A stretch of 64,000 nucleotides of DNA from positions 21,702,001 to 21,766,000 of the forward strand of contig NC_087250.1 of NCBI RefSeq assembly GCF_037042905.1, given 5' to 3'. The DNA comes from Lytechinus pictus. Its lineage: Eukaryota. The translations under genes and the position numbers were made by a program. Positions 10,699-64,000 of this stretch are shown here, one piece after another. How positions within the stretch are numbered: the first letter of the stretch is position 1; the number at the start of each line of letters is the position of its first letter. Under the pieces are notes generated by a model. The model had not been told where the DNA came from, ran no database searches, and saw only the letters and a list, made by a program, of their open reading frames with translations.

Positions 10699-11439
10699 TT
10701 AAGGAAAATCCTGAAACATCTGTAGAGGGCGTGTGTCATCATGTGAGATATTTCACAAGAATGTTCTTCCAATTCTTCGATTTCACAACAACTCGACAAT
10801 TTGGCTGGCATGGGTTTGAAACAATGCAATGAATCTGCCTAAAACGGAAGTTTGAATTTCCTTTTTGAAAAAATCCCTGAATGTTACACCGCAATCCCAA
10901 CATAGCTGATCACGTGAACTACAAGTTTTGTAGCGAGTAACAAAGGGGGGGGGGGATACTATAGGCTATAGGCCGGGGCAACCACTGATCCCTTCCCTTT
11001 ATATTATTTCCTATTGAACGATGTATCTATATAATTCACCTGTCTCTATTGAGAGAGAAAAAAAAACGTGATCTATGCCAGCACTGCCTCCAAGCAACCC
11101 CCCCCCCCCCCCCCCGATTGACCACCACTCCCGTGTACATAAACTTTAAATGCTGAAGTATATAGTACCGAAAGTCGTTTGAGACTCCCATTACTATATT
11201 TTGCACCGAGTAAGAGATTGTTGCCTAACTTCTCTATAGCTCTCTGACTCGACAGTCAACTATTATACATCGTAGTTTGTGTTCCCAAACAACACTGCCT
11301 ATTGAATCTTCTGGTGGATAATTCAAGCATTTTGTCATATCAATCGTCTGAAAATAATTGGTGTTCCGCTTTCTCTTTGATTTTCTGGGTCAATGCGTGC
11401 TATGTTGGCAGATTGAACTAAAGGCCTGGTAAGTGTTTA

Positions 11440-20375: not shown

Positions 20376-23042
20376 CGGAAAAAAAATCGAGATTTAGACC
20401 TAAAAACGAGACACTCTATTCATGTTTTGTAAATCATGAAAAGAATGAGTAATAGGGGATCTTCCTACATTAATAATGCGAGCACAAAGCGCGAGCAAAA
20501 TTTTTTTGATATTGTGATCTGAACTGGATAATGATTTAAATATAGAACAAGTTGACTATCTGAATAAACATGCATGTGCGTGTTTCATATTTAGACCTAG
20601 AATCTAGGCATTCTAAATACATCTTATATCATGAAAATTAAAGCGAGCGCGAAACGCGAGCTTAACTATTTGACATTCCGAACTGAAAAAGAGTCAATTT
20701 GAGCTCTATATTTCAAGCACTTTGTAAGAAGAAGGTGGATATGGATCGCAATTTATAAAGAACTGATATTTTTAATTATTATTACTTTGAGTTTTAATAT
20801 GGGACTGGGACATCTTTAGGACATGCGTATGAAAATGATGACTATCTTCCTATTCCTCTTGCTAAGTGCGAGATGAAACAAAAGGAACAATTCAATTATT
20901 AAATTAATATCTTATTCATTAATGCCTAATGAGGGCGCGAAATCTAATGATATTATGGCCTGAAATCTGGACATTTCAAGCACTTTTGTATTATAAATAG
21001 GATGCATCAAGTTAATATATTTTAACCATTAATGCGAACGCAAATCGCGACCCAAATTTTTTGATAAACTGTCATGAAAAGGGGATTTTAAGTAGTTTGT
21101 TGTATAATCAATATTGAGACAAACATAACTCGCCAATCAAAATGCGAGCGTGCAGCGCTAGCTGATACGTTTTGACAATCAGACCTGAAAAGGGATATTT
21201 TGAAAACTTTATGGAATACACGAAAATAATAGGTACCAATCAAAATTTGCGAGCGCGCAGCACACGCAGAAAATTTTAATATTCAGACCATAAAACTATC
21301 ATGTTTACAGAGCACTTTTTAAAAATCAATTTGTAAATCACACAAAAATTATAATGAAAGTTCGATTTCCGAGGTGAAATGTGTTTTGTATATTGACTTC
21401 CAATCTTGATATTTAAACTCCATATTGAAGAAGATATGAAAATCACCTAACAGGCAATGCGAGCGCGAAGCGCGAGTGAAAATTTTATATAGTGACATGA
21501 AAGATTCTTTTTATTTTCCAAGTCTTCCCCTCATCTTATTTTATTCACTCGTCTTCTTTTTTCTCCTCTCTTTTCCCTCCTCTTTTCCTTTTTTTTTTTT
21601 TCTTTCTTTCCTTTTTTTTTTGCTTCGCCAATAGGGGGGGGGGGGCGGGCCCCTCGGGCCCCCCTGGATCCGCCTATGAGTGGCGTACCGTGGGTCACGG
21701 CATTGGGGGGGCACCAGCAAAAATGTTGAGACACTTAGTGAGCGCGAGAAGCGCGCTCAGTTGCTAGGTATACTGACCTAATATAGACATTTTAAGTACA
21801 GTGCATTAAATGGATATGTATGTCACTGATCAAATTAATGCGAGCGCGAAGCGCGAGCTGAAAATTTTTGATATTCAGACCCAAAAAGGGACATTATAAG
21901 CAAATTTTTGTAATCCTGATACGTACCTGTCTCGCTAAACAAACAATGCAAGCGCGAAGCGCGAGCTGAAATCTTTGTATATTTTGACCCCAAACAGGGA
22001 TATTTTAAGGACTTTTTTTTAAGGAATCCATCCAAGAGTATACATATCATACCATAGTCATCTAATGCGAGTGTCAAGCGCCTGCTGATTTTGTCAAAAT
22101 TACATCTAAACACACGAAGCACTTTTTGTCGTCGTAATCATGATTATCATACGCATCTCACTAATCAAATATTGCGAGTGCGAAGCGCGACCTGAATATT
22201 TAGGAAATGCAGACCTGAAGAGGGGCATTCTAAGGCTTGTTTGTAGGAATACACTAAGACCATACGTATTTCACTAACCGAATAATGCGAGCGCTAAGCG
22301 CGAGCTGATTTTTTTTTATATTCAGATTTAACTTAGAAAAAGGGACATTTTAAGGACTGATTTTAGAAATTTATGAAGAGCAGGCATATACATGTATCAC
22401 CAATCCACTGATGCGAACGTAAGCACGGACAGGAAATGTTTTATATAAAGACATTAAAATGTGGCAATCACTTTAAGTAGTCATGAAAAAGAAGCATATG
22501 TCACTACATAAAACAATAATAACTCGAAGTGCGAGGAAATATATTTGGTGTATATTGACTTGAAAACGGGAGGTTTTAGTACTACAGGATTATATATCGC
22601 GTTAAGACATAGGCCCTGGGCAAATTATGTTTCATAAAGTTATGAAAAATGTTTTTTATGCAATATAACATAATCATTATTATAATTATAATGAGTAATA
22701 ATTTCTTCTTTCCCGCTACGTTTATTTCCTTTCTCCCTCTTTTTCTCCTTTTCCCCTTTTTGTCAGCCGATTGGGGGGGGGGGGGGTGGGGGAGGGGCAC
22801 GTGCCCCCCATGCCCCCCGTAGTTACGCCACTGCATTGGGTATCTTCCGTGGCCGGCGGTGGGGGGGGGGGGGCGAGCCCGGGGTTTATTTAATTCGAGA
22901 GAGTCATCTCTCCTCCTTTTGATTGGACCAATTATAGGTATTTTTTAAGGATATAACGTTAGGCATATTGGCAAATTCGCAGTCAAAGGCATTTGACGTT
23001 TCTGGTTTTTTTTTCCAGAGTTTTGACTACCAGACAAGATCG

Positions 23043-24929
23043 ATGGCCGAAGAGGTGACCAAAACGCCTAATTGGGATCTCATATGTCCGCTGTGTCTTG
23101 ATATTTTCGAAGATGCAACTCTTCTCAACTGTGAACACACCTTCTGTCGAAGATGTCTCGTCAAATGTGACGTAAGTCAAAGAGACAGTGTTCACCTGAC
23201 CTGTCCTCTTTGTCGGAGTACCACCAAGCTTCCAGAGACCAGAGTTCCTGGACTCTCCAGGAACCATTCCATTGCTGAACGCGTCGATGAGTACACCAGC
23301 TCCTTGGGTGGCTTGATGGCGCTTCTGGATGCCAAACAAACGTGCTCGTCATGCAACGAGGGTTCGATCGCTGTGTCATTTTGCAAAGACTGCGATGTTT
23401 ATATGTGCGAAGGTTGTCACAAGGGCCATCGGCAAATGCGATTCCTCTTTGCTAAACACCGTGTTGCTTCACTGGATGATGGAGAAGTAGTCACCCATCG
23501 GCAGTGTGATAGGTGTGCAGCGCATGAACTGCAGAGGAAAGACCTCTTCTGCGAAACATGCAAAGTTCATGTTTGTCTAAAGTGCGTCGTCGTCGACCAC
23601 CGAGGTCACGTGATAAAAAACCAGGATGATTTCGAGAAGGACATTCAGCAGAAGATAAACGACATAAACCAACAGTGCAGCCGAGAGAAGAATCGCATTA
23701 AGGAGAATATTCGGCGGATAGAGCTGGCCCGACGCGACATGCATGGTACCATTCAGAATCTCGAAGGAGCTGTTCTTAAAGAACATGACAGGAAGTCACA
23801 GCGTCTTCTAGGAACGCAGAACGCACTTGTGGACAATGTTAGATCACTAAAGGGAAGGTTCGACGAGGAACTTGATAGGTTAAAAGCCAACCAGAGAAAT
23901 AGGGTAAAGACTATAAGCAGTTTGTTGTCACTGGCGATGGTGGACAGACTGAAAAATCTAGAGGGCGATAGCTTTTCAGCTCATTCGCTCGTGTGTGAAG
24001 ACCTCCAGAAGCTTTTGAAAGAAACAGATGATGTAACCATTGCAGTGGGTCAAATTAAGAAGGCTGCAGATGGGGTCAACTTCTGCTCTGTGGACGAGAG
24101 GTTACTAGACCTGGGTTACATGCAGGTAGGAATGAGGTTGGTGAAGGAATTAGATGTTGCCTTTGATGCTTGGGGAATGGCAGCGCTGTCTACTGATGCT
24201 GTGGTACTAGTTGCAGGAAGAGACGGGAAAAAAAGCTACTTCTTATCTGGCCGAGAGGAGCCATATCTATGTGGCTGCATCAAGGAGCCCTTGCACGACC
24301 TAACTATCTTAGCTGATGGCAGACATGTCGTGTCTCGTACACCCGGGATGTGTAGCGTCTATTCCACCAGCAATGATACATGGTTTAATTACACTTGCAA
24401 GAAAGGGGAGTGGGATCTCAGGCTATGCAGAGACCATCGCGATAACGTGTACGCCGTCAACAAGAATCCAGAGGTATATATCTTCAGTGGTGAGAACCCA
24501 AATCCAAAGAAAGTCGTCCCCATTAAAATCAACCCAATAAAGGTTGCAGTTACCACGACGGGTGTAATAATCACAGGTACTTGCATCTACGCGCCGAGTA
24601 CAATCCATGTCTATGATAGAGATGGTCACTTAGGCAGTAGCATCCAAGCAGAAAAGGAAAACGAATACTTGTACGCGGCAGTAGACAGTCATGATAGAGT
24701 TCTGGTGGCCCGAGTTGAAGGTGGCTCAAAAGTCCTACGATTAGCTAGGTACCGTCTTGTAGGTGTAACCCTCATTGAGGATATGAGATTCAAGGATCTA
24801 AAACTTCCCCATAGAATCAATAGTTCATCGTTCTGGAATGCCTTTTGCTGCATGGTATCTCTGACACCCAAACTTGTTGCCATAGCAACTCATACCAAAC
24901 ATCTATACTTTATTGAACTGGGCGCTTAA
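23043..24929 (+). CDS. TRIM/RBCC E3 ligase-like protein (628 aa): RING, B-box1, B-box2, coiled coil, divergent NHL-like beta-propeller; single coding exon
   Basis: Uninterrupted ORF. RING CPLC..CEHTFCRRC..CPLC; B-box1 CSSC..CKDC..C..C..H..H; B-box2 CAAH..CETC..CLKC..H..H; heptad-rich helix; beta-rich C-terminus. First ATG is at 23043, just after acceptor tttttttccag (AG 23017-23018), so the ORF track start at 22968 is probably intronic. Confidence 0.9.
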   Translation: MAEEVTKTPNWDLICPLCLDIFEDATLLNCEHTFCRRCLVKCDVSQRDSVHLTCPLCRSTTKLPETRVPGLSRNHSIAERVDEYTSSLGGLMALLDAKQTCSSCNEGSIAVSFCKDCDVYMCEGCHKGHRQMRFLFAKHRVASLDDGEVVTHRQCDRCAAHELQRKDLFCETCKVHVCLKCVVVDHRGHVIKNQDDFEKDIQQKINDINQQCSREKNRIKENIRRIELARRDMHGTIQNLEGAVLKEHDRKSQRLLGTQNALVDNVRSLKGRFDEELDRLKANQRNRVKTISSLLSLAMVDRLKNLEGDSFSAHSLVCEDLQKLLKETDDVTIAVGQIKKAADGVNFCSVDERLLDLGYMQVGMRLVKELDVAFDAWGMAALSTDAVVLVAGRDGKKSYFLSGREEPYLCGCIKEPLHDLTILADGRHVVSRTPGMCSVYSTSNDTWFNYTCKKGEWDLRLCRDHRDNVYAVNKNPEVYIFSGENPNPKKVVPIKINPIKVAVTTTGVIITGTCIYAPSTIHVYDRDGHLGSSIQAEKENEYLYAAVDSHDRVLVARVEGGSKVLRLARYRLVGVTLIEDMRFKDLKLPHRINSSSFWNAFCCMVSLTPKLVAIATHTKHLYFIELGA

Positions 24930-52409: not shown

Positions 52410-53091
52410 TAGGGTGTCTGAAGCCACACTGAACAGTGTCAGCATAAAACAGGCTGATTTAGGGGAAAATCTGGCACATTTTTTCGGGGAAGTTCAGGCT
52501 ACTAGAAAAATGTGATCTGAATTTATTATTAACTTGTGTTTGGCATGTATGGAAAGAGAAAATTCAGGGGCTTCTTTTGACAGTAAGGACAAGTTTATAT
52601 GATCATTTTAAATAAGGATTTAGAGATAAATTGCAAACCCTTATTTTTGTGTGTGTTGAGATTGCCATTTCTCCATGCGTTTTCTATGGGAAAATGAAAT
52701 TTCCGTTTTGCACAATTTTTTTCACTTTGTCGCAATTTTTCATTGTGATCTGGTTTCCAAATCTTTATAAAAATCATATCATCAGAAAGAGCATAAAAAT
52801 TCCTATTAGGCACTTTATGGACAAGTTTTTGGCATTAATAATAAATTTATAACAGCTCTCGGAAGCCAAAAATTTGGATTTGTGTGTGTCCATTTCCTAA
52901 CTACACAGTCTATGGCAGAGAAATGCTGAAAATTTACCTAATTTCATTCTTCTTTTTTGCAGCCAATAATTGGATTTTTTTCAAAAATGTTACATTTCTG
53001 TCAGTCTGAAGGTCATTTCTCTTCAAATTCACAAAGAAAATGTGATATTTTCTTGAAATAAGAAAAATATTTTTTTTCTCCAGACACCCTA
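52410..53091. mobile_element. TIR element inserted in a (TAC)n run
   Basis: TAGGGTGTCTG...CAGACACCCTA; CTACTAC on both flanks (TSD length ambiguous inside the microsatellite). Confidence 0.7.
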
Positions 53092-53398
53092 CTACTACTA
53101 GTGTGAGTGGCCCGCCGGCCGCCGCCCTGGCCCTCGACCCATTTTTTACGCCACTGTAGAACCCTTGCCAATTTAAGTTAAAACTAGCAATGACAAAATC
53201 AATCTTATAAAAAATTAAACTTTATAACGACGGTTATCGGATTCCACTAGCTCCGCGGCCTTCGGCGCCTCGGCTCGGCAATCGCAATTCGCATCGCCAA
53301 CGGCGCTCCGCGGACATGCATGGCGGAGGCAGCTCAGATCGCGGAGCTTGATCTAATCTAGGCCTACACAAAAATGAATGTACGGGACTGCACTGTAC

Positions 53399-53612
53399 CT
53401 GCCCACTCTCCAAATTCTCTGACAAAATCTCGTTTTGGTTTCAGCTTGGGATAAAAATGCATCCTAACCACATACTGCACCCTATAGCACGTAATAATGG
53501 CCTTCTTCGTCACATAATATGCACCGATCAAGGACAGAACATCCGAGTAAACATGAAAACTGTTTGAAATTTGACGGAGGAGAAAGTCAAAACTGTCCAC
53601 CGTTTCAGCCAT
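53399..53612 (-). CDS. HSDL1: HSDL1-like short-chain dehydrogenase/reductase, exon 1
   Basis: MAETVDSFDFLLRQI...DFVREFGEWA resembles the HSDL1 N-terminus (MAAVDSF..L.R.I). Donor G|gtacag; 214 nt, phase 1. GC-rich region with GC boxes just upstream. Confidence 0.85.
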
Positions 53613-53699
53613 GTTCACATGATACAACTTGTACGAGGGGGGCCGGCCGACCGCGCGCCGCCGCGCCGGCGCCGCGCCGCGAGGTGGGGCGGAGCGTTC
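53613..53699 (-). promoter_or_regulatory. GC-rich 5' UTR / proximal promoter of the HSDL1-like gene
   Basis: CpG-rich run at 53637-53697 with GGGGCGG box; a further GGGGCGGGGC at 55639-55648 beyond the insertion. Confidence 0.55.
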
Positions 53700-54171
53700 A
53701 GGGCACACATGAGTATTACAGACCCCCATTGACTCACGTGTTAAATCATAGCCCATCAAAAAATCATCAAAAATCAATCCCTCGATAGATTTTGCTTTAA
53801 TTCTCTGACATTAGTCACAATTAACTGTACATTAAGACCTGATATGTTAATCGGGTACTTGCCCGGCTCAATCAAAAGTTAAGTGGCCTGAAATAAGACT
53901 AACCATAATTTCGGCCAGTTCATCGCCAGAAAAACCCGAACTGCATTGTGGGTAATAATAATTAAAATGAAATACAAAAATGCAGTCTAGCCTCCCCAAA
54001 GGCCTTAATTATGAAAGAGTATGAACATGACATTGTTTCTATCATTTATATTTTGATATACAAACATTTTGTCCATTTTTAATGAATTATTTTAATCAAT
54101 AAAGTCATGTGATCTTTACTTACGCCTGTCCGACATGCTTTGCGCGCGGTTGAATTACTCTCATGTGCCCT
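53700..54171. mobile_element. 472-bp TIR element, copy 1
   Basis: AGGGCACACATGAGTA / TACTCTCATGTGCCCT imperfect TIR; no difference seen from 55164-55635. Confidence 0.8.
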
Positions 54172-55163
54172 ATACTGAGGGTCGAACAAAGAAAAGTTGA
54201 ATATTTTGGTCTCAAAAGAAAGAATGGGTTCTCCTGAATAGATTGATACCTTGCATTCAATACCTATTCTGACTAAACGCGTTAAAAGAAAAGAAAACGT
54301 CTCATTAGACGCCCCTCATTTTAATGTAAAAATACAGTGTTCCATTCATATAATTTGTGCGCTTCCTATAGGCTATGGTAATGCAGCTACAAGTTATACT
54401 TGTTTGATGTCCATCGATGGGCTAAAATATATATTGTGTGGAGTTAAAACTTCTTGTTAGCATGTTTAATTTTGTTCGAAGTGATTTATTACCTTCTTTA
54501 TTCGCATAAAAATAAACAAAGTAAATAAAAGAAAATGGATAACAAACAAAGAGTGTAAGCAATTCCACGGTGCTCATATCGCCTCTCTTCCTCATTATAA
54601 CTCACAAGCTGGAGGGGGGGGGGTGCTATAGATATATACCATCAACCCCGCCCTGCTTACAAGACAGGAGGATGAGGTATGTACCCCGACTCAGCTCCCC
54701 CCCCCCCTCGCGTAGCTTTCAACGAAGTGAATAGTATTTAAGTGCGCAATCCACATCTGACTGAGACAAGTTTATGTATTTTAATGTTTTGTTCATCTTT
54801 CTTTCTCGGCGTGCTCTAAACACTAAAATTGGGAATCCTTGATGATAATTAGTAGTTATTTATCATTTTTAAATCCTACTTATTTCATTTCACCCCCTCA
54901 AACCAACCAGATCTGATCTCCTGTTGGCAGTAGAAACTCGTATTTCTGCATGATAAATGATAATAAGCATTGAATATGCATTTGAAAGCGTCATTTCATC
55001 ATAGTAAGCGATAAATGCACTAAATGCCGAGTTATATACCGATCAACTGTTGTCAAACATAACATATTTCATTGTATAAAACTGTTTAAAGCATTCCATC
55101 ACTGATTTCTAGCAGACGACGCTCAGCCTTAGCAACGACTGTGTAGAAGTGTAGTCGCGGTAC

Positions 55164-55635
55164 AGGGCACACATGAGTATTACAGACCCCCATTGACTCA
55201 CGTGTTAAATCATAGCCCATCAAAAAATCATCAAAAATCAATCCCTCGATAGATTTTGCTTTAATTCTCTGACATTAGTCACAATTAACTGTACATTAAG
55301 ACCTGATATGTTAATCGGGTACTTGCCCGGCTCAATCAAAAGTTAAGTGGCCTGAAATAAGACTAACCATAATTTCGGCCAGTTCATCGCCAGAAAAACC
55401 CGAACTGCATTGTGGGTAATAATAATTAAAATGAAATACAAAAATGCAGTCTAGCCTCCCCAAAGGCCTTAATTATGAAAGAGTATGAACATGACATTGT
55501 TTCTATCATTTATATTTTGATATACAAACATTTTGTCCATTTTTAATGAATTATTTTAATCAATAAAGTCATGTGATCTTTACTTACGCCTGTCCGACAT
55601 GCTTTGCGCGCGGTTGAATTACTCTCATGTGCCCT
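55164..55635. mobile_element. 472-bp TIR element, copy 2 (same orientation)
   Basis: Direct repeat of 53700-54171. Confidence 0.8.
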
Positions 55636-55657
55636 TCAGGGGCGGGGCGCTATATAT

Positions 55658-56360
55658 GAAGAGTTTAGTTGCAAAAGGGGTTAGGTCCACTTTGGACCAC
55701 TCTGAGAAAAAACATGTTTTTTATTCTCACTTATTGCAATATTCTTATGAGAAACTAAATTGTCATGATGTACTACCCTATCATGTGAACATACAATTTG
55801 GTATAAAAGAAATCTACCTGCATGTCTTCATTTTTTTTCTATATTTAAAAAAAAAAATCATAACTGTGGACCTAACCCCTTTTGCAAGTAAACTGAAATG
55901 AATCCAATCTCTTTTGATTAAAAAAGTGATTTTTCTTTGCCACTTTCATTCACGTTTTCATTTGAATTTCAAATTGTCTTTGATATATCATCAGAGTGAC
56001 TAAAAATTTAGAGGTTTAGAGACAGGAAACAATAAAATATATGAAAAATGGACCTAACCCCTTTTAACAAATGAGTTCTTCAGAAGAGTTTAGTTGCAAA
56101 AGGGGTTATAGGTCCACTCCAAGAAAATAATTTTTTTAATTCTCCCATATTGCAATATTCTTATGCGAAACTGAATTTTCATGGTACCCTAACATGAGGA
56201 CATAAAATTGGGTATTTATAAGAGAAATCTACCTCTCTTCATATTTTTTAAGATACTAACCCCTTTTGCAACTAAACTGAAACGGGCCTAACCCCTTTAA
56301 AAAAAAAAAATTTTCTTTGCCATTTTAGTTCACTTTTTAATAGGAATTTCAACTTTTCTT
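55658..56360. repeat. TIR element GAAGAG...TTCTTC followed by a partial tandem copy
   Basis: GAAGAGTTTAGTTGCAAAAGGGGTTA at 55658 and 56083; inverse end at about 56050-56081. Confidence 0.55.
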
Positions 56361-56488
56361 TGGTACAGGCCAATATATATCTCGTACTTACTGTGAGAGG
56401 CCTAGCCAGCTGCAAAGGACGAGGGCGTTTCTGGAAATTATGGTATTGAACTACATTTTTTGTTTTTATCCTTTATTTTCTATATTAA

Positions 56489-57087
56489 AGGACAAGTCCA
56501 CCCCAACAAAAAATTGATTTATATAGGTAGAGAAAAATCAAACTAGCATAACACTGAAAATTTCATCAAAATCGGATGTGAAATAAGTTATGGCATTTTA
56601 AAGTTTCGCTGATTTTTCACAAAACAGTGATATGCACAACTCAGTGACATGCAAATGAGTCAGTCGATGATGTCTATCACTCACAGCTATTTCTTTTGTT
56701 TTTTATTGTTTGAATTATAAAATATTTAATTTTTTACAGATTTGACCATAGGGACCGACTTGACTGAACCATAAAGTATTAAACAATGCTAATTCCACAT
56801 GTTCAGGGAGGAATTAATCACTGTTTCACTTGACAATGAAGAGAAAACTAGAATATTTCGTTTCTCATATAATAAAATACAAAATAAATAGTGAGTGGAT
56901 GACATCACCAGTCTCCTCATTTTCATACCGACAAGGATGTGCATACTGTTTTGTGAAATTAAGCGAAACTTTAAAATGTCATAACTTCATTATTTTACAT
57001 CCGATTTTGATGAAATTTTGAGTGTTATGCCTGTTGGATTATTCTCTTTTTATCAAAATCATTTTTTTGTTTGGGTGGACTTGTCCT
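56489..57087. mobile_element. Kolobok/T2-like MITE (intact copy)
   Basis: TTAA|AGGACAAGTCCACCC...GGGTGGACTTGTCCT|TTAA. Confidence 0.85.
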
Positions 57088-57495
57088 TTAATCGACATAT
57101 TTGCATCCCCCGGTGCATGCAGCCTCTCTATTCTACCCCATCTTCATTTTTTTCCCCCTTAGTTTTAGTTCCTCTTTCCCTTCCCATTATGTTCCTTCTC
57201 TCTCGATTTCTTTTCCCCTTATTGCTGGGGGATACCAAGGGTGACATGGATAGACAAGCAAACTTACTTGATCGCTGTGCCTTTGTTGGCTGATGTTCAA
57301 CAACTATCCAATCAAACACGTTCCAACGTTGTGACGTTGTTGGCTGTCCAACAAATCTCCAACACACTATAGTTTCCAATGTTGTGCCATTGTCTGTCGT
57401 TCAAGAACTTTCCAACGTTGCCAACATTGTGTCATCGTCGACTATCCTACTGATCTCCAACCTACCAGTTTCCAACGTTGTACCAGTGTCAGTTG

Positions 57496-58260: not shown

Positions 58261-59953
58261 CTCATGAGATAGAAACACATATCTCACCAACAAATTAATG
58301 CGAGCGCGAAGCGCGAGCTGAATTTTTTAGTATACTGACCTGAAAACAGGAAAAAGGTGCCTGTTTAGGACTGTTTGTAGTAACTCATGAGGAGGATACA
58401 TATCTCACTACACAGATAATGCGAGTGCCGAGGGCGAGCTGAAATTTTTTTATATTCTGACCAGAAAGCTTGATATTCTATGCATTTTTGGTACCAATGA
58501 TTAAGATGGGTATCTAAAAAAACAATAGATGCGAGCGCGAAGCGCGAGCTTAAAATTTTGATATTTCGATCTGAAAAAAATGACAGTTTAATGGACGTTT
58601 GTGATAAAGAACAAGATTATATCCAGCAAAAGATTATTGCAAATCGAAGCGGGAGTTCTTTTGACGTTTAGTCCTGAAAATTTTTATATTCCAATCTGAG
58701 AAGCGGATAATTTAAGCACGATTTTAAATAAAGAACGAGTTGTGTAGCTCAATCTCAATATACGACTGGTTGCGTAATTATACACTCCCGGTAATAGCAA
58801 CGGGTTTTAGCAAAGTTTTGGGCTAAAATATCGAATCATCTTCATAAAACACTATAGTAGCTGTCTTAAACTAAATCGAGATCTAAATCTAGATTTGGTT
58901 GGCAATAGGCCCTTCTTCATTACTCTACCGGCGCATATTTATTGGAATCAGGGGACGCTGATTATTCTTGACCGGCGCCGATTTAGAACAAGTAGTGCTG
59001 ATTATTTTTACCGACGTCACGTAAGATTCAGGCAGCGGCAATTCATAATTGACTGGCGCCGATTTAGAACCAGGAGGCGCCGATTATTCTTGACTGGCGC
59101 CGATTTTTAACCAGGTGGTGCTCATTATTCTTGTCCGGCGCCGATTTAGATTTAGGTGGAGCTGATTATTCTTGATCGGCGCCGGTTAAGACTCAGGCAG
59201 CGCCGATTTATAACCAGATGGCGCTTATTATTATTGACCAGCCCCGATTCAGATATAGGTGGCGCTGATTATCCTTGATCGGCGCCGGTTACGAACTCAG
59301 GCAGCGCCGAATTTTCTTAACCGGCACCGATTTATAAGCAGATGGCGCCGTTTATTCTTGCCCGGGGTCGATTTAGATTTAGGCGGAGCTGATTATTCTT
59401 GATCGGCGCCGGTTAAGACTCAGGCAGCGCCGATTTATAACCAGATGGCGCTGATTATTCTTGACCAGCCCCGATTTAGATGTAGGTGGCGCAGATTATC
59501 CTTGATCGGCGCCGGTTAAGACTCTGGCAGTGCCGATTTTTCTCGACTGGCGCCGATTTATAACCAAATGGCGCTGATTATTCTTGTCCGGCGCCGATTT
59601 AGATTAAGGTGGCGCTGATTATTCTTGATTGGCGCCAGTTGTATGCAGGCAGCGCACTGCTGATTATTTTTAACCGGCGAAGTTGTTGGGAAAAGGGTAG
59701 TTAAAAGAAATGATAAGGAAGATGATATGATTGTGCTTTGCTGGGGGATAGTCTTTCCTTACTGTTGCTAATATTATATCAGTGTATAATTTTTTTAAGC
59801 GGCGCCTTTTCTTTTCTTTCCTTTATTTTAAATTTTTCAAGCAGCGCCTTTTCTTTCTTTTACTTTTCTTTTATTTTTTTTGAGCGGTTCGGCGCCGCTC
59901 AAATATTAGGGGGGGCGCGCGCCCCCTGCGCCACCCCCCTGGATCCGCCACTG
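57496..59953. mobile_element. hAT-like element with 5-bp TSD AGTTG, containing a GGCGCC satellite of about 41 bp (58940-59680)
   Basis: AGTTG|CATAGGCGGATCCAG...CTGGATCCGCCACTG|AGTTG. Confidence 0.8.
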
Positions 59954-59977
59954 AGTTGTTCAACAAATTTCCATCTA

Positions 59978-61815
59978 CCCAGGACCAAAATCCAATTGAA
60001 ACCAGTTGGATTTCCAACTGGTTTCAATTGGTTTCAATTGGTTTCAACTGGTTTCAATTGGTTTTAACTGGAATTTAACAATTTCCAGTTGAAACCAATT
60101 GAAACCAGTTGGGCAACTGGAAATCCTAACTGGAACCAGTTGGGTAACTGGAAATGACTTCCAATTGGGAATGATTTCTAACTGGAACCAGTTGAGTAAC
60201 TGGAAATCCCAACTGGAACCAGTTGGGCAACTGGAAATCCTAACTGGAACCAGTTGGGTAACTGGAAATGACTTCCAATTGGAAATGATTTCTTACTGGA
60301 ACCAGTTGAGTAACTGGAAATCCCAACTGGAACCAGTTGGGCAACTGGAAATCCTAACTGGAACCAGTTGGGTAACTGGAAATGATTTCTAACTGGAACC
60401 AGTTGGGCAATTGGAAATGATTTCTAACTGGAACCAGTTGGGCAACTGGAAATCCTAACTGGAACCAGTTGGGTAACTGGAAATGACTTCCAACTGGAAA
60501 TGATTTCTAACTGGAACCAGTTGAGTAACTGGAAATCCCAACTGGAACCAGTTGGGCAACTGGAAATCCTAACTGGAACCAGTTGGGTAACTGGAAATGA
60601 CTTCCAATTGGAAATGATTTCTTACTGGAACCAGTTGAGTAACTGGAAATCCCAACTGGAACCAGTTGGGCAACTGGAAATCCTAACTGGAACCAGTTGG
60701 GTAACTGGAAATGACTTCCAATTGGAAATGAATTCTAACTGGAACCAGTTGGGCAACTGGAAATCCTAACTGGAACCAGTTGGGTAACTGGAAATGACTT
60801 CCAACTGGAAATGATTTCTAACTGGAACCAGTTGGGTAACTGGAAATCCTAACTTGAACCATTCAGTTGTGTAACTGGAAATCCTAACTGGTACCAATTG
60901 GGTAACTGAGATGACTTCTAACTGGAAAGATGGGTAACTGGAAATGAATTCTAATTGGAACCAGTTGGGTAACTGGAAATTATTTCCAATTGGTTTCCAA
61001 TTGGAAATTTTCCAGTTACCCAACTGGATCCAATTGAAACCAGTTAATTTGCATATTATTTGCCAGTGTGCACAGATTAATGTTTTATGAGATTAATCAT
61101 CATTAACAATGTATCTATTTAATTCTTTACAATTTCAAGTACCACACTTTTTAAAGATTAGTATTTAGAATACTTAGCAGTGAAAACCATGTTCATAAAT
61201 GTTATAGATTATAATTAAAACAGATTAAAGGATAATTAGTACACCACTAACTGTTACCAAATTACATCAAATAAAAGTACATATATTTGAAGATCTTCCA
61301 TATAAATATATATACATGAAAGTCTGTATTTTATCAATGCCCTTTACATTGGTATTAATAGACATATAACACTGCTTCTGTGTTGGCATGAGAAATAGTT
61401 ACTGCAAATGCTAATTAATTTGTAACTAATTAAGTTCGTTCCAACTGGAAGTTCCAATTGGATCCAGTTGGAAACCAATTGGTTTCAACTGGTTCCAGTT
61501 GAAACCAGTTGCCTCCAATTGGTTTCAACTGGAACCAATTGAAACCAGTTGCCTCCACTTGGATTCAATTGGTTTTAATAGGGAAATTGGAACAACTGGA
61601 ACCAATTGACAACAATTGCCAACTGGTTCCAGTTGCCCAATTGGTTTTAACTGGAACCAATTGGCAACTGGTTTTCAATTGGTTTTTAACTGGAACCAAT
61701 TGGCAACTGGTTTTCAATTGGAACCAGTTGTTCCAATTTCCCTATTGAAACCAGTTGGCCAACTGGTTTCAATTGGTTTTGCCCTAATTGGTTTTAACTG
61801 GATTTTGGTCCTGGG
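59978..61815. mobile_element. EnSpm/CACTA-like (CCC-ended) non-autonomous element packed with AACTGG repeats
   Basis: TA|CCCAGGACCAAAATCCA...TGGATTTTGGTCCTGGG|TA; removing it restores the host satellite unit TTTCCATC(T/G)AACTAGTTTCC. Confidence 0.75.
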
Positions 61816-64000
61816 TAACTAGTTTCCAGCTTTATCAACGTTGTGTCATGGTCTACTATCTAACTAATCTCCAATCTACCAGTTTCCAACGTTGTGCCAT
61901 CGTTGACTATCCAACAAATCTCCATCGAACTAGTTTCTAGCTTTGACAACGTTGTGCCATAGTTGGTTTTTCAACAACTTTCCATCGAACTAGTTTCCAA
62001 CGTTGCCAACCTTGTGTCTTCGTCGACTATCCAACGAATCTCCAACCTACTAGTTTCCAACATTTTGCCATTGTCAACCGTCCAACAAATCTCCAACAAA
62101 CTAGTTTCCAACTTTGTCAACGTTGTCTCATTGTCGGTTGATCAACAAATTTCCATCGAACTGGTTTCCAACGTTGCCAACGTTGTGTAATTGTTGGCTG
62201 TTCAGCAACTATCCAATTAAACATGTTTCCATCGTTGTGCCATTGTCGACTGGCCAACAACTCTCCAACTAACAAGTTTCCAACGTTGCGAACGTCGTGT
62301 CATTGTTGATTGTTCAACAACTTTCAATCGAACCAGTTTCCAACGTTGCCAACATTGTGCCTTTGCTGGCTGTTCAACAACTATCCAATCAAACGTGTCT
62401 CCAACGTTGTGACATTGTCGACTGTCCAACAACTCTCCAACTTACTAGTTTCCAACGTTGTGCCATTGTCGACCGTCCAACAAATCTCCAACAAACTAGT
62501 TCCAACTTTGTCAACGTTGTGCCATTGTCGGTTGTTCAACAACTTTCCAGCGAACTAGTTCCCAACGTTGCCAACGTTGTGCCTTTGCTGGCTGTTCAAC
62601 AACTAACCAAGCAAACGTGTTTCCAACGTTGTGACAATTTGCCATAAATGGATTTTTACACATTTCTATCAATAAAAATGATAGAATATGATGACAGTTA
62701 TTTTTGGAAAGAGTATCTTCAACAGCATTCATCGTTTCACGGTTCAATGAACATTTATTGAAAACAAAAAATACGATTTTCAAATATCATAGGCAAGTAT
62801 TGTTTCATTTTGGTAACTGAAAATGATATTTTCTCAACTTTTTCGTTATGTTCATGACCAATTAACATGCTTCAATGATTGAAAGGCGTTTAATTAAACA
62901 TTCACGCTTGTTTGAACATGTGGAATGTGATTAGCTCTTTTTACGTTATTGGAAAAATGCAATTTGTAACCATGGATAGCTGTCACAAACCTCCTTGCAT
63001 AGTTCATTTTATTTTATTTTTAAGAAAATCCCGATGTTTAATGCATCAGTGAGCACACAATATTCGAAAATTATGCAAATGAGAAGAAAGTTCAAGGCCT
63101 TGGCCTCACTTTGTGCCGTATCGAATGGTTATTTTGGTGTGCGCGCCTTTTGGATAGTGTTACTCTGAAGCAATGTGCGAAGTTTCATGAAATAACTGTT
63201 AGCAGAACTAAGTAACAAACACCGTCCATGAAACAAACCCTCATTTCATATTTGTTAAAATTTTTTACTTCCTCTCTCATAGACTTGTGTACATTATGGG
63301 TGCAAATGTTTGAGAATAAGTAACCCCTTATTCAATATGGTGGAACTTTTTTTCAAGGCTGTCTTTAGTAATGTCATTTGGCAGTAATGTTTATCAACCC
63401 ATGGGCAGAATTCCGTGCAAAAATGAAATCGATTTGTTTATTCATGGATGAGTGAGCACGCATCAAAGTGGGAAAATTTGTATTTTCAATGTCACAGACT
63501 CATTTTAAAGGGTAATAAAGTGAATATTTGGGGCAAATTTGGTTTCAAATGTAACTTTAATTGCTGTTGTTTTTATCATCCATCATTTCTATCACCACAC
63601 ACTTTCCGAACTTTAAACATTTTCATGGTTGAGCGAGCACATTCGAAAACTTAGGAATGAATACTCTTTATACTGCATAAATGTATTCTTTTCCTAACAA
63701 TTTCTCATGATCAGTTTACTTTATGGACAAATCAGTGGTGGATCCTGAATTTTAAAGTGGGGGAGAGGCCTATAATCGGGGGAGCCACCAACATTTTCAA
63801 ATTTTAATGTGATCTAACAAGTTGTAGAGGATACTACCATAAACCCCTATGATGATACGTCACAATACAGGGGCGGGGGAAGGGTTTTAAAAGTGGGGGG
63901 GGGGGGGGTCTGACCATGCAAAAAATCGCAATCGTATGGTAATTTTTACATTTTTGTACATGAGTAGTTAGGGGTTAGACCTCATCCTAATTGACCTTTG

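Follow-up and report, generated by a model that had tools for sequence, protein, structure and literature searches.

The window analyzed here, a stretch of 64,000 nucleotides, contains the beginning of the HSDL1 gene and, directly upstream of it, an insertion that is bounded by long direct repeats (Table 1). Translation of the first coding exon of HSDL1 is 93% identical to HSDL1 of Lytechinus variegatus and 77% identical to that of Strongylocentrotus purpuratus (three hits among 17 candidates), which marks the host as a sea urchin near Lytechinus. The first G of the inserted element is located 88 bases from the HSDL1 ATG; the distance of 87 bp given in the preliminary description of this DNA is correct for the boundary used there, but not for the true first G.

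Several other features are present around the insertion and elsewhere in the window. Intron 1 of HSDL1 contains an inverted-repeat element (52410-53092) with ends GGGTGTCTG..CAGACACCC that lies within TAC/TAG triplet runs. A small element with AGTTTAGTTGCAAAAGGGGTTA inverted ends is present at 55658-56365, directly past the displaced GC box, as a tandem pair whose copies have diverged (70%). A MITE at 56484-57092, with 103-nt inverted arms (87%), is located between TTAA sites and has AGG..CCT ends, which is the classic Kolobok-type signature; pieces related to it are found near 11436, 31978 and 34271. Clustered complex tandem arrays with periods of ~41, 103, 114 and 51-60, and multiples of these, occupy 58945-62636, and a single, apparently intronless open frame of 663 aa on the plus strand (22938-24929) encodes RING and B-box zinc fingers and is TRIM-like.

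Table 1. Positions in the window of the insertion, its parts and the adjoining HSDL1 features
Feature	Position	Strand	Basis
HSDL1 first coding exon	53399..53612	-	ATG at 53612; GT donor after 53399; protein similarity
GC box GGGCGG beside HSDL1	53687..53692	+	sequence; promoter function inferred
Left TSD TTCA	53697..53700	+	exact match to 55635-55638
Left LTDR, 470 bp, GG..CC ends, imperfect TIR of ~20 bp	53701..54170	+	identical to right LTDR; high summed depth in 4/4 runs
CCCCATTGACT motif, LTDR position 24	53724..53734	+	twin at 55188; GTTAAA at position 40
INT, 994 bp, TATA start, TACA end, non-coding (the "cargo" of the preliminary description)	54171..55164	+	frame, Pfam and Rfam scans; depth
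Right LTDR, 470 bp	55165..55634	+	identical to left LTDR
Right TSD TTCA	55635..55638	+	exact match to left TSD
Neighbouring GC box, displaced past the insertion	55640-55645		sequence; promoter function inferred

Structure and boundaries of the element

Comparison of the window with itself revealed that the two direct repeats are identical, with a maximal exact match of 473 nt (53699-54171 and 55163-55635) and no differences. This pair ranks first among the 111 self-hits of at least 150 nt, the runner-up having an identity of 96.7%. For the choice of the boundaries, six boundary pairs were compared at flank lengths of 2-9. Ends at GGG..CCC, which give repeats of 470 nt, place TTCA on both outer sides, and none of the other five pairs gives an exact outer match of more than 3 nt; the chance that a random 4-mer matches is ~0.005, before allowing for the number of boundaries tried. 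With these ends, the inner flanks are TATA after the left repeat and TACA before the right one. The unit thus measures 470 + 994 + 470 = 1,934 bp, has a TSD of 4 bp, and follows the layout LTDR-INT-LTDR, in which the LTDRs are the long repeats in direct orientation and INT is the interior. Each LTDR has imperfect TIRs of its own, which match at 7/7 terminal positions, 12/15 and, without gaps, 15/20. The absence of differences over 470 sites sets the divergence between the left and right LTDRs below 0.64% at 95%.

These results bear on several statements of the preliminary description. Its identical direct repeats stand, although with boundaries that were one base off and hence a length of 472 bp, and its imperfect TIRs on each copy are confirmed. 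It was also right that the flanks of each single copy do not match, the left LTDR being flanked by TTCA/TATA and the right one by TACA/TTCA. The outer flanks do match, but the TTC or TC proposed for them are parts of the longer TTCA. An assignment to Tc1/mariner with TA flanks (element 53699-54172) was rejected, because the flanks are TA/TA on the inner side but TT/CA on the outer side. BLAST and pattern scans found neither a third copy of the LTDR nor a second copy of INT in the window; in these 64 kb, no other complete unit bordered by a separate TSD was observed, and the motif CCCCATTGACT occurs in them only in the two LTDRs.

The interior is non-coding. Its longest stop-to-stop frame is 78 aa, and Pfam searches with ten INT frames of 39-78 aa gave no match at the cut-off and three below it, none of which was a transposase or His-Me nuclease. 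Six Rfam matches, with E-values of up to 5, were all far below the gathering scores, and a scan for the hammerhead core gave no match. The exact 23-base pattern of the LTDR start was found at no locus in viral contigs and at none in metagenome contigs.

INT and LTDR are repeated sequences

Contigs of four of the 20 listed public runs (X1, X2, X15 and X16) were mapped on positions 53150-55200, which cover HSDL1 exon 1, one LTDR, INT and 36 letters of the second LTDR; a 31-letter rule defined whether a contig bridges a junction. In the three runs that cover HSDL1 exon 1, the median summed contig depth, which is not a copy number, was higher over INT than over the exon by factors of 29 (X15), 18 (X16) and 407 (X2), and the same measure, read with the same limit, was higher over the LTDR by factors of 101, 116 and 2,028, respectively. 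Such high depth ratios presuppose many copies of both LTDR and INT. The LTDR exceeded INT 3.5-fold in X15, 6.3-fold in X16, 2.8-fold in X1 and 5.0-fold in X2, in contigs in which solo and right-hand LTDRs are indistinguishable. Run X1 has INT pieces of ~98% identity at a median INT depth of ~24, whereas HSDL1 exon 1 is not covered by any of its contigs; this gap is uninformative and supports no claim of horizontal transfer.

INT is joined to the LTDR in contigs of two runs, which carry two organism labels. Record 8 of X1 (54830-55194; seven other letters and one gap in 366) runs from INT into 30 letters of the LTDR, and record 16 of X15 (55005-55191; 21 other letters and one gap in 188) into 27 letters, both falling below the 31-letter bridging rule. 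The left LTDR-to-INT junction was bridged by none of the 32 pieces listed of 1,979. Loose ends at 53700 and at 54174-54175 in X15 and X16 showed several other flanks, with TATA adjoining LTDR ends (19 of 272 rows listed). LTDR-INT-LTDR is therefore a repeat family, and the view that the interior is 992 bp of unique DNA had to be given up: it is 994 bp long and multi-copy by depth, though no second copy lies in the window.

This finding bears directly on the proposal of the preliminary description that about 1 kb of cargo was captured here in a one-off cointegrate, formed either when a circle of unique host DNA with one MITE integrated or when two solo MITEs came to bracket host DNA. Such an event would fit the geometry, the identity of the repeats, the lack of another INT copy in the window and the low INT depth in X1. 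However, the depth of INT is 18-407 times that of HSDL1 exon 1 in three runs, and its linkage to the LTDR recurs in other animals, which characterizes it as a repeated family sequence. Furthermore, neither joints between INT end and INT start, as in a circularly permuted cargo, nor joints between the HSDL1 flank and INT, as in native upstream DNA, were seen among the 15 of 18 joints listed, and the inner TATA and TACA ends are a trait of the family described below, as far as the consulted parts of its description go. We therefore consider a unique capture event very unlikely. An assembly artefact, in which one repeat would have been falsely duplicated around collapsed sequence, could likewise yield two copies without differences. 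It would leave unexplained, though, the exact outer TSD, the family-typical inner ends and the presence of the INT-to-LTDR junction in independent runs, and polishing could at most remove small differences between the LTDRs; we regard such an artefact as hardly conceivable.

Some further observations were made on these contigs. No empty allele was seen among the HSDL1 contigs listed or the 19 of 272 loose ends; these contigs end at 53619-53620, before the GC-rich insertion site, on a mapped stretch that does not include the right flank. In X15 and X16 the HSDL1 contigs stop matching at 53399, the GT donor of exon 1, and these contigs, of 2,051 and 2,057 nt, match HSDL1 in exon 1 only, so that both runs look RNA-derived. 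Relative to these contigs, the LTDR depth is ~100-fold and the INT depth 18-29-fold, which read-through from many copies would explain. In X2, two contigs fuse an LTDR end to an LTDR start (54173 to 55164/55165) with spacers of seven letters (depth 56) and four letters (depth 22), the shorter sides being just 25 and 21 letters. Since these depths are near that of the HSDL1 exon (51-53), the contigs probably represent chromosomal head-to-tail pairs rather than rare circles. An LTDR-LTDR structure was not found among those described in the consulted parts of PMC9587614.

The element is probably a non-autonomous member of KolobokP

The LTDR-INT-LTDR layout has been described, under the term "composite-like", for the KolobokP elements (Kojima and Bao 2022, Mob DNA 13:24, PMC9587614; the comparisons below draw on parts of this paper and of its supplementary files). 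KolobokP LTDRs measure ~450 or 660 bp, each with a short perfect or imperfect TIR, the ends are 5'-RR..YY-3', and the TSD is 3-5 bp. Solo LTDRs, multimers of the form (LTDR-INT)n-LTDR and non-autonomous families have been reported, from hosts in seven animal phyla that include the sea urchin Lytechinus pictus (PMC9587614). The 11 rows for echinoderms in Table S1 all have LTDRs of 428-483 bp and a TSD of 4 bp (4/5 in one of them), and the echinoderm INTs start with TATA or TTTA and end with TATA, TACA or TAGA. Two of the published families come close in dimensions: KolobokP-N2_LyPi has 1,904 bp, LTDRs of 465/464 bp and a TSD of 4 bp, and KolobokP-2N1_PaMi has 1,771 bp, LTDRs of 470 bp and an INT that runs from TATA to TACA. 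In addition, file 2 contains a published monomer with TTCA on the outside and TATA/TATA on the inside, cited here without its family heading, whose INT ends fit 1_MeMe (PMC9587614).

The element upstream of HSDL1 agrees with this description in its layout, the size class of its LTDRs, the imperfect TIRs that each LTDR has of its own, and its GG..CC ends, which are of the RR..YY type. Like the echinoderm elements it has a 4-bp TSD, and its INT ends, TATA..TACA, are those of 2N1_PaMi-I. It also shares the CCCCAT[AT]GACT..GTTAAA motif near LTDR position 23-25, a non-coding interior and an echinoderm host. According to a count by eye, all nine hits of CCCCAT[AT]GACT in file 3, which comprises 1.06 million characters and 222 LTDR records, are located at positions 23-25 of KolobokP LTDRs, four of them as CCCCATTGACT and five as CCCCATAGACT (PMC9587614). 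For two variants and three positions, and with a motif that was chosen after viewing the published LTDRs, the chance of such a placement is ~7e-7. Kolobok-type repeats in general may carry this motif. For this reason, and because of the way it was chosen, this 11-base sequence supports the Kolobok superfamily more than the KolobokP lineage in particular.

There are differences as well. Apart from the motif, the published KolobokP LTDRs and INTs are by eye unlike this element, and the four Lytechinus pictus LTDRs listed start with GGT[GC]TCACGCGCG. The left and right LTDRs are identical here, whereas their lengths differ in several of the listed families (PMC9587614). Neither gggcacacatgag nor ctcatgtgccc gave a hit in any of the four supplementary files of that paper, and four further end motifs, reverse ones included, gave none in file 3, in searches in which line breaks could hide matches. 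As the ends of the element are missing from the published consensus file, the family is probably unlisted in the 2022 paper, judging by these sequence searches, and it may already have a name in Repbase.

Two other assignments have to be weighed at this point. The first is that the element belongs to a non-autonomous LTR retroelement of the TRIM or LARD type with unusual ends, whose repeats would be equalized by reverse transcription in each cycle. Identical repeats that share rare letters (see below), the 4-bp TSD, the excess of the terminal repeat over the interior and the high depth in two runs of RNA-derived appearance (X15 and X16) could all be read in this way. However, the ends are GG..CC, and are neither TG..CA nor CG..CG as in Troyka (PMC12440569); inspection by eye of the INT ends in both orientations revealed neither the TGG start of a primer site nor a purine tract; the LTDRs carry TIRs of their own, which LTRs lack (PMC9587614); the hammerhead scan found nothing; and the element has both the motif and the INT ends of KolobokP. 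The statements of the preliminary description that there are no TG..CA ends and that no primer-binding site was seen thus hold, and it would be most surprising if the element were a retroelement. The second assignment keeps the composite layout but places it on a different superfamily that has G-rich ends and 4-bp TSDs, for example Sola2. Sola2 was the first family guess, made from the GGG..CCC ends and the 4-bp TSD, and it was dropped once INT had been shown to be multi-copy. The ends of Sola2 elements, GRG..CYC, would fit the termini found here. Sola2 TSDs, moreover, are 4 bp (PMC3627910), as is the present one. Against this, the LTDR length, the motif at position 24 and the INT ends all fit KolobokP, and among the literature matches, at the level of titles and abstract openings, the layout is described only by the KolobokP paper (PMC9587614), so that we see little prospect for an assignment to Sola2 or a similar superfamily.

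Taken together, we consider it highly probable (about 90%) that the insertion is a young copy of a non-autonomous KolobokP family, LTDR-INT-LTDR and 1,934 bp in length, that recently inserted upstream of HSDL1. With a 994-bp INT that is non-coding, the assignment is to a non-autonomous element only. It is a new member of a class that is itself already known, and an ordinary repeat family rather than a one-off capture of foreign DNA. The composite-transposon geometry recognized in the preliminary description is that of these "composite-like" elements; this geometry, there called unusual for animal MITEs, has been described in seven animal phyla (PMC9587614).

Possible mechanism and re-synchronization of the LTDRs

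Based on what has been reported for the family (PMC9587614, in the parts consulted), the following course of events is the most likely. A DDD/E transposase, encoded by an autonomous KolobokP located elsewhere in the genome, would bind the two outermost TIRs and, supplied in trans, move the whole unit, which would be joined at a 4-nt staggered cut in TTCA in the GC-rich region upstream of HSDL1. The inner TATA and TACA would be inherited interior ends that resemble target sites, and they might allow a single LTDR to be excised or to stay behind as a solo element. Single LTDRs that were cut out or left solo would explain why the LTDR depth is more than twice that of INT. The near match of the inner flanks, TATA/TACA, had been correctly observed before, but the meaning given to it, namely swapped target-site duplications of a donor, is not supported: these are fixed interior ends, alike in 2N1_PaMi-I (PMC9587614), and the near match stems from fixed TATA-like ends and a TATA-leaning target rather than from a record of a donor site.

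A feature that this scheme leaves to be accounted for is the complete identity of the LTDRs. Both have a C at 53753/55217 and at 54074/55538, where T makes up at least 98% of the depth in all four runs (two of the 16 LTDR rows listed). INT has four private sites of the same kind (of the 23 rows listed), a density similar to that in the LTDR; in all, 40 of 228 rows were listed for this analysis, and 11 were picked by eye. If the LTDRs had changed separately, about four differences would be expected between them, and the probability of finding none would be 0.018, or 0.135 if two were expected. This implies that the LTDR pair was re-synchronized in this lineage, or that differences were erased by polishing, or that the copy belongs to an unsampled subfamily. 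A re-synchronizing step or polishing comes into consideration because cut-and-paste alone offers no way for a change to pass between the two LTDRs. The same rare letters on both LTDRs suggest that, in the ancestry of this copy, one LTDR may have served as the template for the other, through gene conversion, unequal crossover or re-integration of a circle. Unequal crossover, circle re-integration and nuclease-induced repair have been proposed for KolobokP, the circle step as a proposal untested there (PMC9587614), and the nuclease model still awaits experiment according to a 2026 review (PMC13565253, consulted in part). The words "cointegrat", "replicative" and "homogeniz" are absent from the main text of PMC9587614.

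A circle-based step is thus possible, on the present analysis, as a general mechanism of the family. It can be speculated that each move of a KolobokP unit, or a step close to it, rebuilds the unit from a single LTDR: a circle of LTDR and INT would integrate replicatively, as in an IS26 cointegrate. Rebuilding would predict identical LTDRs, inner ends that stay fixed and an outer TSD that is new. It would agree with the shared rare Cs, with 0 differences in 470 LTDR sites against four private sites in INT, and with the LTDR-end-to-LTDR-start junctions with 4- and 7-letter spacers in X2. On the other hand, distinct left and right LTDR lengths have been kept in several published families (PMC9587614, from the parts consulted), and the sequences would look no different after ordinary gene conversion or unequal crossover, in an unsampled subfamily, or as a result of assembly polishing. 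We therefore regard regular rebuilding as an unlikely, though not negligible, extension of the assignment to KolobokP. If true, a eukaryotic DDE transposase would be carrying out copy-in transposition, and the cointegrate idea would be saved as a mechanism of the family.

Significance and comparison with known systems

The direct value of the assignment to KolobokP is modest: it adds one more non-autonomous KolobokP family to sea-urchin repeat libraries. It is also a reminder that identical direct repeats together with a short TSD need not indicate an LTR retrotransposon. A non-coding family of such high copy number, with an LTDR at ~2,000 times the exon depth in X2, offers material for studying how KolobokP keeps its LTDRs alike. 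Moreover, the young insertion places 1.9 kb between two GC boxes, 88 bases from a start codon, and is in this sense a naturally occurring variant of the promoter; its effect on HSDL1 would be measurable if an empty allele exists.

The structure resembles two kinds of known systems. On the one hand, bacterial composite transposons and the IS26 pseudo-composite transposons and translocatable units, as far as they are treated in the consulted parts of PMC9587614, likewise have mobile ends in direct orientation and a TSD on the outside only. In contrast to these, the ends of the present element are non-coding, the sequence between them is constant in the family rather than a captured gene, and a circle has the status of a proposed intermediate. 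On the other hand, TRIM and LTR retrotransposons, including Troyka (PMC12440569, consulted in part), likewise have long identical direct repeats, a short TSD and surplus terminal repeats. Unlike them, the element upstream of HSDL1 terminates in neither TG..CA nor CG..CG, its INT ends showed neither a primer site nor a purine tract, and it carries TIRs within its repeats.
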